Part shown: piece after piece, positions 27,827-30,800 of the stretch
Numbering within the stretch: the first letter of the stretch is position 1
Layout of the letters: the number at the start of each line of letters is the position of its first letter
Assembly (NCBI GenBank): GCA_036149055.1
Contig: JAYZQJ010000227.1
Location: forward strand, 78,761 to 142,760
DNA: 64,000 nucleotides
Direction of reading: 5' to 3'
DNA from: Myxococcota bacterium
GTDB taxonomy: Bacteria; Myxococcota_A; Polyangia; Polyangiales; Sandaracinaceae
Translations under genes and position numbers: made by a program
The notes under the pieces: model-generated
What the model was told of the DNA's origin: nothing
The model's input: only the letters and a program-made list of their open reading frames with translations
Databases searched by the model: none

Positions 27827-30800
27827 TAATAAAAGCAGCACCGGAACCCGGTGTTCGGGAACGCGAAGGCGTTGTCGCCGACCGTGAAGTCGAAGTGGCA
27901 GCTCCGGCCGGGCTCCACGTTGTTGTAGGAGCCGCCGCGGATCTCGTGCACGCCGGAGGCGGGCGCGGTGTTGGTCCACTCCTTCACGTTGCCGCTCAGG
28001 TCGTAGATGACGCCGGCGCCGCCCCAGTCGGTGAAGCACATCGGGAAGGTGCTGGAGGCGGTGGGGAAGAGCGCGTCCTGGTCGCCGCTCATGCCACCGC
28101 TCGAGTCGAACTCCTCGCCGTTGCAGGTCAGCGGGGAGCTCGTGGTGCAGCTCGACGCGTAGCTCCAGTCGCAGCTCGAGCTCGGGCCCTCGCAGGCGGC
28201 CTCCCAGTCGGGGGCGTCGCAGAGGCGCCAGCCGGTGCCGCCGCCCGAGCAGGTGCCGCTCGGGTTGAGCGCGCAGCACGCGTCGCGGGCCTCCGTCCAG
28301 GTGAGGTTCGTCCAGGGCAGCACGTTGGCGTTGGCGCAGGCCTGCGTCGTCACCGTGCCCTGGCTCGAGCTCGTCGCGTCGGGGCGGCTCGCCTCGTACT
28401 GCATCATGTGGAAGGTCCCGCCGCCGGGGCGCGGCATCAGCACCGTCGGGATGGCGCTGAGCGGGATGTTCTCGTCGATGCTGCCGTCGCAGTCGTCGTC
28501 GACGTTGTTGCAGGACTCGTTCGCCGCCCCCATGCCCGCCGGCGGCGCCGTGCAGAAGGTGCCGCTCTCGTCAGCGGTGCACGCGATGACCCCGGTGCGC
28601 CGGCAGATGCCGCTGCCGTTGCTGCAGCTGTTGCCGACCGTCGGGAAGGGCTCGTCCACCGCGCCGTCGCAGTCGTTGTCGAGGCCGTCGCAGCGGGTCT
28701 CGGTGGTCTCGAAGGTGCCGGGGTAGCTGCACTGCCAGCCCGACATGCCGCCGCAGGTCGGCGTGGTGCCGGCGCACACGCCGTTCGGGTTGCAGAAGCT
28801 GCTCGGCGGGGTGAGCGACTCGTCGGTGCTCCCGTCGCAGTCGTCGTCGCGCCCGTTGCAGATCTCCGCGCCCGCGAAGCTGCAGGCGTACTCGCAGCCG
28901 TTGGCCGAGCTGCCGTCGCGGTCGACGAAGCCGTCGTCGCAGGCGAGGATCACGCAGCTCGAGGCGCTGCAGCCGGCGGTGGCGTTGGAGAACGCGCAGA
29001 CGTTGCCGCAGCTGCCGCAGTTGTTGCGGTCGTTGGCGAAGTCGAAGCTCTCGTCGGTGCTGCCGTCGCAGTCGTCGTCGACCGAGTTGCAGCTCTCGAG
29101 CGCCGGGCCGGTGCCGCCCATGCACTGCAGCGCGCCGCCGGCGCAGACCTGCATGCCCTGGGTGCAGGCGCCGGTGCCGACGCCGCAGGCCGCGCCGCCC
29201 TCGGGGTTGCCCTCGTCGATGCGCCCGTCGCAGTCGTCGTCGAGGCTGTTGCAGAGCTCGCCGCCCGCCCGCGGGCCGGTGGCGCCGACGCAGCTCAGCG
29301 TGCCGCCGGTGCACTGGCGGGTGCCGGGCGCGCAGACGCCGACGTCGGTGCCGCAGCTCCCGCCGCCGCCCGGGTTGCCCTCGTCGGTCATGCCGTCGCA
29401 GTCGTCGTCGCGCCCGTTGCAGCTCTCGGTCGTCGATCCGACCGCGCCCACGCAGCTCAGCGTGCCGCCCGAGCAGGTCAGGGTGCCGAAGCTGCACTCC
29501 CCGGTGTCGATGCCGCAGCTCCCGCCGCCGCCCGGGTTGCCCTCGTCGACGCGGCCGTCGCAGTCGTTGTCGAGCCCGTCACAGGTCTCGCTCGGGTCGG
29601 GCCCGGTCGCGCCCACGCAGACCAGCGCGCCGCCCATGCACTGCTCGCGGCCCGCCTCGCAGGTGCCCGTCGAGGTGCCGCACACGCGCCCACCCTCGGG
29701 GTTGCCCTCGTCGGTCGAGCCGTCGCAGTCGTCGTCGACCCCGTTGCAGGTCTCGGTCGACGGAGAGGTCGCGCCCATGCAGACGATGGTGCCGCCGACG
29801 CAGGCCTCCGTGCCGGTCGAGCAGGCGCCCACCGCCGAGCCGCAGCTCGCGCCGCCGCCGGGGTCGCCCTCGTCGACCGTCCCGTCGCAGTCGTCGTCGC
29901 GCACGTTGCAGGTCTCGGTCGCGGGCGTCGCCGGCATGCAGCTGTACTCGCAGCCGTTGCCGGGGTTGCCGTCGACGTCGAAGAAGTCGGGGTCGCAGCT
30001 GTCGAGCTCGCACGCCCCGGCCACGCAGGTCCCGGTCGCGTGCGCGAAGACGCAGACCCGACCGCAGGCGCCGCAGTTGTTCGAGTCCGTCATCAGGTCG
30101 ACGTCCTCGTCCACCGTGCCGTCGCAGTCGTTGTCGCGCAGGTCGCAGACCGCGTCGTCGCTCGACTCGACGAGGCAGCGGTACTCGCAGCCGTTGGCGG
30201 GGTCGCCGTCGAGGTCGAAGCGGCCGACGTCGCAGCTGTCGATCTCGCAGACGCCGGCGTTGCAGGCCGGGAACGCCCCGAGGGGCGCGCACAGGCTCCC
30301 GCACGCGCCGCAGTTCTCGGTGTCGCTGTCGAGGTCGAAGCCCTCGTCGACGGTGCCGTCGCAGTCGTCGTCGAGCTCGTTGCAGAGCTCCGCCTCGAGG
30401 CAGCCGTCGGGCCCGGCGTCCTGCACGCCGGAGTCGACGCCGGTGTCCGGCACCCCGGTGTCGCGCACGCCGGTGTCGGCCACGCCGGTGTCCGCGCCGG
30501 CGTCTCCCGCCGGCTCGTCGCAGTCGAGGCAGAAGGGCTCGACGTCACACCCGGTCAGCAGGAGGCCCGCCGCCACCGCGGCGACCACGAAAGGGACGGC
30601 GGGATCGGCCGCGCCCCTCCTCCGCGCCCCGCGGCTCCGCCGGCGACGGCGCAGGAGCGCGACGCCGAGGAGGCCGAGCGCGAGCAGCCAGCCGTGGGGC
30701 GCGCTCTCGACCGGCGCGCTCCCGACCCGGCACATGCACCCGCCGGCGGCGAGCACGCGGTCGCGCTCGTCCTCGCGCACGCCGGCGTCGATGCCCGCGT

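Follow-up and report, generated by a model that had tools for sequence, protein, structure and literature searches.

A mid-chain MYXO-CTERM tag joined to a lipoprotein signal suggests a two-product polyprotein with length-matched stalks in a Sandaracinaceae bacterium

P0001, the subject of this study, is encoded on the reverse strand of a 64,000-nucleotide stretch of contig JAYZQJ010000227.1 (positions 78,761 to 142,760; assembly GCA_036149055.1, a Myxococcota bacterium of the Sandaracinaceae), hereafter the window, in a single open reading frame (ORF; 34452-27826, 2208 aa) in which a MYXO-CTERM sorting tag runs mid-chain and in frame into a lipoprotein signal. We propose that its product is a membrane-hairpin precursor, probably cut by a myxosortase and by signal peptidase II into two lipid-anchored, stalked proteins; this reading builds on the signals, their order and conservation, the genes of the enzymes and the co-variation of the two stalks. 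A MYXO-CTERM inside a chain is already known from MXAN_5598 of Myxococcus xanthus (PMC11980579, cited here, like PMC3222651, from the parts of the paper available to us), whereas the lock-step stalk lengths are new. This precedent, five further internal-CTERM genes in the same genome and the matched stalks go beyond the first-pass annotation of the locus, which had been made from the sequence of the window.

A sorting-signal hairpin within one reading frame

The frame (27826..34452; all features of the gene lie on the minus strand) begins at an ATG with GGGAG 9 nucleotides (nt) upstream and is uninterrupted across the junction, where the order is GGCMC (C1239 and C1241; C1239 = 30738-30736), a transmembrane (TM) helix G1254-L1267, RRRRRSRGARRRGAAD, an h-region and LTG-C1302 (30549-30547). 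Tag and helix occupy 30652..30756. The Arg-rich loop R1268-D1283 (30604..30651) is predicted, from its sequence and the loops of homologues, to be cytoplasmic and to serve both as the CTERM tail and as the n-region of the second signal, which consists of the h-region P1284-G1301 and the lipobox L-T-G-C1302 with Asp at position +2 (30547..30603). Run on a 112-aa junction fragment, TIGR03901 scores 26.6 bits against a cut-off of 20, which bears out the first-pass claim of an internal MYXO-CTERM followed in frame by a lipobox without an intervening stop. The same model gives 19.6 bits on the 1271-aa first half and no report when the full 2208-aa protein is scored, so internal CTERM tags may readily be overlooked.

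Neither signal stands where its family would place it. The MYXO-CTERM tag is followed by 935 residues, and is terminal in the split relatives described below. The lipoprotein signal has the basic n-region, h-region and L-[A/S/T]-[G/A]-C of the consensus (PMC3222651), and its place is neither N-terminal nor behind a start codon of its own, both of which are found in the split relatives. P0001 thus lacks the terminal position that marks both families it resembles, MYXO-CTERM proteins and lipoproteins, yet to judge from its motifs would work like both.

Ahead of the tag, a predicted type I signal peptide (aa 1-22, 34387..34452, by sequence inspection) ends in A-S-A followed by Q, and many homologues have a comparable A-Q junction ahead of the vWA motif. 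The head of the predicted product 1 (aa 23-372, 33337..34386) matches Pfam VWA with 24.3 bits (cut-off 23.8) and contains DTSGS...T...D, which we take to be a metal ion-dependent adhesion site (MIDAS)-type motif. Stalk 1 (31528..33336) is made of 13 Cys/Asp-rich MopE-type repeats (PF11617), nine of which measure about 54 aa; between it and the tag lies a Cys-rich short-repeat segment with an acidic DAG linker (aa ~976-1232, 30757..31527) that has no NCBIfam family match. Behind the lipobox, stalk 2 (28423..30546) comprises an acidic DAG/DTG linker and 11 MopE-type repeats. The counts of 13 and 11 repeats agree with those of the first-pass annotation.

The predicted product 2 ends in an FGE-like head (aa 2011-2208, 27829..28422) that is borderline for PF03781: against a cut-off of 23.3, the full-length protein scores 21.6 bits and its second half 24.1. 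Its best Protein Data Bank match by profile is SUMF2 (E 3.6e-6), and the top rows of a Foldseek search are all of the FGE fold, with a best E of 0.002 (none reaches 0.001) from a weak model (predicted local distance difference test, pLDDT, 52). The catalytic Cys pair of FGE would presumably be found just after the RGGS motif; P0001 reads RGGSYNN at this place, and all 16 aligned rows lack Cys at the three residues that follow RGG[SAG]Y. A catalytic FGE was rejected on these grounds, and the head is probably non-catalytic.

Conservation, relatives and further hairpins

The processing motifs recur across the family. Across 98 aligned junctions of fused proteins, the lipobox has its Cys in all 98 and a Gly at position -1 in 94, and the two CTERM columns hold Cys in 86 and 95, respectively; these counts are partly circular because the junction profile was seeded on those motifs. 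The loop between the helices stays basic while its length drifts from 3 to more than 30 aa (median 14, the parser having placed the first helix wrongly in roughly ten rows). Because the shortest loops are RRR or RRK and no usable internal start exists, one Arg cluster must act as both CTERM tail and n-region, as the first-pass annotation had argued. Separately, Gly(-1) occurs in 93/97 fused compared with 24/42 stand-alone proteins, a difference that could stem from tighter processing requirements in the hairpin or from ancestry.

Whether homologues are fused or split had been posed as a check of the polyprotein idea, and both forms occur. A DNA search of 61 genomes returned 30 related loci, of which 17 are fused (our own included; 12 genera, 5 families) and eight are split (2 genera); the other five are the indel-damaged L004, the stand-alone lipoprotein gene L030 and three loci without an anchor. 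At the split loci gene 1 stops right after the Arg cluster, gene 2 begins with an overlapping or adjacent ATG or GTG, and each of the two genes retains its own signal. This genome (G000) has both states: besides P0001 it contains a fused paralogue, L070 on C128, and a split paralogue, L075 on C76, in which the genes overlap by TGATG. The stalks of L070 are longer, with 20 and 18 repeats, and its C-terminus is extended by additional sequence; the first gene of L075 has about 950 additional residues ahead of the vWA domain.

A protein search with the C-terminal domain alone (219 aa) yielded a length-filtered set of 97 long proteins, 92 of which contain the hairpin (91 recognised by the junction profile and P0079 by eye); three are stand-alone lipoproteins and two look partial. 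No chain carrying both vWA and FGE heads without a hairpin was found among these 97, and P0079, which had been a candidate for such a chain, was rejected since a short hairpin is present. Among the 120 listed of 252 short matches there are at least five fragments of fused proteins, and dozens are stand-alone lipoproteins whose signal is an ordinary N-terminal one. P0002, labelled Sandaracinaceae, is among the closest named homologues (91% across the final 219 aa), and P0012, a fused member, bears the source name Sandaracinus amylolyticus. We built a 142-row tree of the FGE-like domain (97 fused and 45 stand-alone, with nine doubtful stand-alone and all partial proteins excluded). In the most parsimonious reconstruction it needs eight changes between the fused and split states, and well-supported branches force four of these; shuffled labels need 38 on average. 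The fusion is therefore old, widespread and was gained or lost several times. The unpublished genome G023 contributes one of the eight split loci, one of the 15 split pairs considered below and a single row of the tree, and none of our claims hinges on this genome.

The hairpin is not confined to this family. A genome CTERM profile built from 24 terminal tags recognised 77 MYXO-CTERMs, 71 terminal and six internal, and all six internal ones lead through a basic stretch and an h-region to a lipobox Cys; the five other than P0001 also pass TIGR03901 (28.7-37.5 bits). The six genes span five differing head architectures, four being unrelated to P0001 and one a paralogue. The CTERM-Arg-lipobox hairpins of L071-L074 are located at C14:47929-51039, C160:14966-18487, C125:60135-64385 and C215:18479-21217 of G000, and their domains are, in this order, an M23 peptidase with CWB2, a phospholipase C-like domain, no Pfam hit, and amidase_3 with PD40; two of the four thus have cell-wall enzyme domains in the first half. 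In a control of 146 internal sites with a hydrophobic stretch and a basic cluster in the ORFs of this genome, a lipobox-type signal follows five of the seven with an upstream GC.C/GGC and one of the 139 without (one of the six internal-CTERM genes lay outside the filter of this control).

The genome also encodes the enzymes of the pathway that the first-pass annotation had named, a myxosortase together with Lgt and signal peptidase II. An MrtC myxosortase (NF040594) is encoded at L056, with 257.8 bits against a cut-off of 195 (nine of ten CPBP hits scanned), and two LspA, several Lgt and GspD score above their cut-offs. The CPBP-family intramembrane protease gene within the window (48779-49648, plus strand) was considered as the myxosortase and rejected: it reaches 36.4 of 100 for Mrt_core and is below all myxosortase cut-offs.

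Stalks of matched length and the paired heads

The two stalks change length together. We measured stalk 1 from the end of the vWA domain to the tag and stalk 2 from the lipobox to the FGE-like head in the 81 of 97 fused proteins in which both heads could be located. In these, stalk 1 equals 1.02 times stalk 2 plus 150 aa (Pearson 0.97), with stalk 2 spanning 212-976 aa in discrete steps. Phylogenetically independent contrasts (n = 77) still give r = 0.95; where stalk 2 changes by at least 50 aa, stalk 1 changes in the same direction in 25 of 26 cases. The offset lies between 130 and 205 aa in 65 of the 81 proteins (shuffled mean 17, maximum 28), and in the remaining 16 it falls outside these bounds within a range of 51-289 aa. 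The same line accommodates 15 split pairs (r = 0.995), which include orthologues and about three length classes, as well as seven more fused loci, which reach 1085 aa (r = 0.999); L053, L083, L084 and L092 were excluded from the comparison because a boundary could not be set. The rule extends to other heads: L080 (3701-10840) and L082 carry a DUF4114 head in front and a BNR-like one behind, with 11 and 9 repeats and an offset, 158 aa, in keeping with it.

Equal stalks would place both heads at the same height, given that product 1 would be held by its C-terminus and product 2 by its N-terminus, and the co-variation points to a side-by-side pair. Head-to-head complex prediction gave the vWA and FGE-like heads a score of 0.39, with 0.00 for the best control, contact agreement of at least 58% and partner pLDDT of at least 83. 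Of the 78 solved pairs 51 attain the mark used, as do 2 of the 108 mismatched ones; only five of the 78 attain it with a score of 0.60 or less, but so do all four passing mismatches of 180. The models thus lend weak support to a contact between the two heads.

In the surroundings of the gene, a chemotaxis-like cluster (CheA, CheW, MCP, CheB and CheR, identified by eye) occupies 19526-25677 on the plus strand. A probable lipoprotein is encoded at 37661-38848 (plus strand); it has the lipobox LTAC, a vWA-like motif (DTSGS) and one repeat-like segment, but no Pfam match at E 0.01.

Processing model, alternatives and significance

Considering the known MYXO-CTERM and lipoprotein pathways, we propose the following hypothetical sequence of events, in which (i) the N-terminal signal would send product 1 through Sec; (ii) the MYXO-CTERM helix would halt transfer, with the Arg loop kept in the cytoplasm; (iii) the second hydrophobic stretch would act as an internal signal and export product 2; (iv) Lgt would lipidate C1302 and LspA cut between G1301 and C1302; (v) the CTERM Cys would be lipidated and followed directly by the MrtC cut, so that a hairpin stub of some 60 aa would remain; and (vi) type II secretion would then carry both products. 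The vWA head would be the outermost part of product 1, which has its anchor at the C-terminus, and the FGE-like head that of product 2, which has it at the N-terminus. Through fusion, the two partners would be made together and in equal numbers, an effect that the split relatives may approach through overlapping stop and start codons. The two heads most likely form one adhesion or ligand-binding unit, as far as their domains indicate. The +2 Asp, which holds PulA (pullulanase) for type II export (PMC3222651), suggests by analogy such an export of product 2; its final location is uncertain, because Asp occupies this position in part of the fused proteins and the rule in M. xanthus differs.

An assembly error, or a recent neutral stop-codon loss in this genome, is one alternative origin of the long frame: a 2-nt deletion at a stop/start overlap could fuse such genes, and the related loci L004, L044, L053 and L084 are disrupted by apparent indels, probably assembly errors there. 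Contigs of four runs (X2, X4, X5 and X18), out of 24 listed, were compared with the window. Those of X2, X4 and X5, from three other studies, cover 30356-31234 or more with 0 gaps, the two differences in X4 falling outside the junction, and the X18 contig covers 30558-31234. The first-pass view that no stop had been lost thus stands, the fusion being moreover common to 12 genera and most of the tree, and a lost stop or frameshift at this locus is refuted, leaving this origin a negligible probability. (The runs holding window DNA are mostly seawater metagenomes; contigs from the RNA libraries X5 and X18 cover the junction, although such contigs cannot show transcription, its level or a single transcript. 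A repeated extragenic element at 27640-27830, directly 3' of the gene, has a summed contig depth of hundreds to thousands in three of the four runs.) It is also very unlikely that the second protein arises mostly from internal translation initiation, the long ORF being read-through of a lost stop. Such a start might be sought at an AGGAGG (the Arg codons AGG AGG, 30621-30616) in the loop and the in-frame GTG at 30588, and some GTG or ATG is present at the end of the first helix in many fused loci. In agreement with the earlier statement that no well-spaced start exists, this GTG, at -13 and within the h-region, is the lone in-frame ATG, GTG or TTG 45-12 codons before C1302; it lacks a basic n-region, its Shine-Dalgarno (SD) duplex is weak (-4.3 kcal/mol), and the AGGAGG is located 27 nt ahead of it and is not conserved in L002 of the same genus. 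In all eight split loci a start codon is served by an SD duplex at least as strong as -9.5 kcal/mol, whereas none of the 17 fused loci has one better than -6.5 and three are devoid of any ATG, GTG or TTG in this interval. Internal initiation is unlikely on account of these weaker duplexes and missing start codons, and the comparison led us to reject a start at GTG 30588 or from the AGGAGG. Furthermore, loops of RRR or RRK are too short to hold a start, and product 1 would remain fused in any case.

A more serious competitor, although still an unlikely one, is that the chain is cut once or not at all and persists as a two-armed protein held by the membrane hairpin, with the signals surviving as topology determinants. 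Matched stalks are equally expected of a single chain folded back on itself, some uncleaved CTERM protein may still reach the surface according to PMC11980579, and the literature searched held no test of internal lipobox processing. However, a topology of this kind needs just two helices and a basic loop, whereas the Gly-Cys of the lipobox and the CTERM Cys are kept while the loop drifts, and five other genes of this genome, four of them unrelated, retain both processing motifs. A disulfide may partly explain the lipobox Cys, yet this Cys follows a normal signal peptide in the stand-alone forms. Finally, the polyprotein may be real and the stalk match a product of array copying or shared ancestry rather than of function, which we regard as improbable. 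The same repeat builds both stalks, kin share lengths, and about a fifth of the proteins deviate from the common offset (the 16 of 81 given above). Between the stalks of P0001, in contrast, the best-matching repeat units are 38-70% identical, and the units align mostly colinearly with the same stalk of distant homologues, so recent copying between the arrays finds no support and was set aside; the correlation also persists in the tree contrasts, and the rule holds in separate genes and with other heads.

Cleavage of the hairpin into two products thus remains the reading we favour, and several observations weigh against it. Both cleavages and the lipidation are inferred from known pathways, and the matched stalks by themselves fit an uncut hairpin just as well. 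The AlphaFold model of the junction has two helices at low confidence (pLDDT 59). No paper was found on Lgt or LspA acting on a lipobox some 1300 residues into a chain; in the available parts of PMC11980579, the myxosortase was tried on terminal tags only, with a short FLAG extension, and MrtC itself is a prediction from profiling. Asp occupies the +2 position in only 49 of 97 fused proteins, and M. xanthus inner-membrane lipoproteins have Lys rather than Asp there (PMC3222651). As for sampling, the length filter over-represents fused forms among the long homologues, the eight split loci of the SD test come from just two genera, and the split pairs on the stalk line are fewer in independent terms than their number, given their orthologues and few length classes.

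Internal MYXO-CTERMs are rare, and MXAN_5598 is the closest case: its mid-chain tag was read as the mark of a probable two-gene fusion, and it was proposed that the N-terminal part undergoes processing and is anchored at the surface (PMC11980579). Its second part, however, is a beta-barrel/OmpA protein, and the passage available to us names no second signal, lipobox or two-product outcome, whereas the tag of P0001 leads into a conserved lipoprotein signal, in a family where fused forms alternate with split ones. No text on MXAN_5598 was found in Table S1 of that paper, as far as it was accessible, and a term search of the main text of the bioRxiv myxosortase preprint, in the version available, did not return 'internal', 'polyprotein', 'fused' or 'lipoprotein'; the supplements of either may list further internal tags. 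P0001 shares with TraA/MrtX, and with MrtC of Chondromyces-type genomes, the signature Cys, helix, Arg cluster, signal peptide, Cys-rich stalk and a cognate myxosortase; MrtX cleaves TraA in a Cys-dependent manner and is also active in E. coli, type II secretion of CTERM proteins is known, and the partner genes for TraA and TraB overlap, much as in the split forms described above (PMC11980579). In P0001, by contrast, the tag is not C-terminal, the head is vWA and not PA14-like, and the partner is an FGE-like lipoprotein instead of the TraB barrel. An identity with the TraA/TraB outer-membrane-exchange system was rejected, as Pfam finds vWA, MopE and FGE only (flanking ORFs were inspected by eye only).

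The second signal resembles those of the Lgt-LspA pathway and of PulA in its L-T-G-C lipobox after a basic region and an h-region and in its +2 Asp (PMC3222651), and differs in being internal and without its own start codon. Sortase LPXTG substrates, the ArtA substrate, NF033207 ('midcut-by-XrtH') and NF058595 ('lipo-invert') likewise have tags processed away from the C-terminus, to judge from titles and names, which name no second exported lipoprotein and by which we set them apart; P0001 remains far under the cut-offs of the latter two, with at most 15.6 of 45 and 22.6 of 37, respectively. The cytochrome b-c1 polyprotein FbcH of Bradyrhizobium japonicum is reportedly a membrane precursor with an internal signal that is cut into two partner subunits, which are encoded by two genes in other species. 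It is said to undergo one type I-like cut and to yield respiratory subunits, with no sortase step and no lipid anchors. Our literature searches did not return this precedent, nor any description of a CTERM-lipobox polyprotein, most subscription papers being outside the search.

In summary, P0001 is likely to be a precursor in which two membrane proteases act on one hairpin. Bacterial polyproteins cut by membrane proteases are rare, and in the literature searched we found none in which a sortase-like enzyme and signal peptidase II act on opposite arms of one hairpin. If this is true, many single 'MopE-related' giants would be two surface proteins each, which lipoprotein predictors confined to the N-terminus miss. 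As the hairpin sets an inverted (CTERM) Cys beside a normal (lipobox) Cys, one construct could address whether Lgt lipidates MYXO-CTERM proteins, a question raised in PMC11980579. Tentatively, and with rather less confidence than for P0001 itself, we hypothesise that the CTERM-Arg-lipobox hairpin is a reusable and general myxobacterial polyprotein linker served by two membrane proteases, and that in this family the antiparallel stalk pair is a modular ruler for the composite vWA and FGE-like head or for other pairs of heads. Under such a ruler, stalks 2 of about 210-1085 aa, changing in matched steps and differing between the paralogues of a genome, would hold the heads at set distances from the surface. 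The lock-step stalk lengths are one of the rare features by which this uncharacterised family of myxobacterial surface proteins can be approached from sequence.

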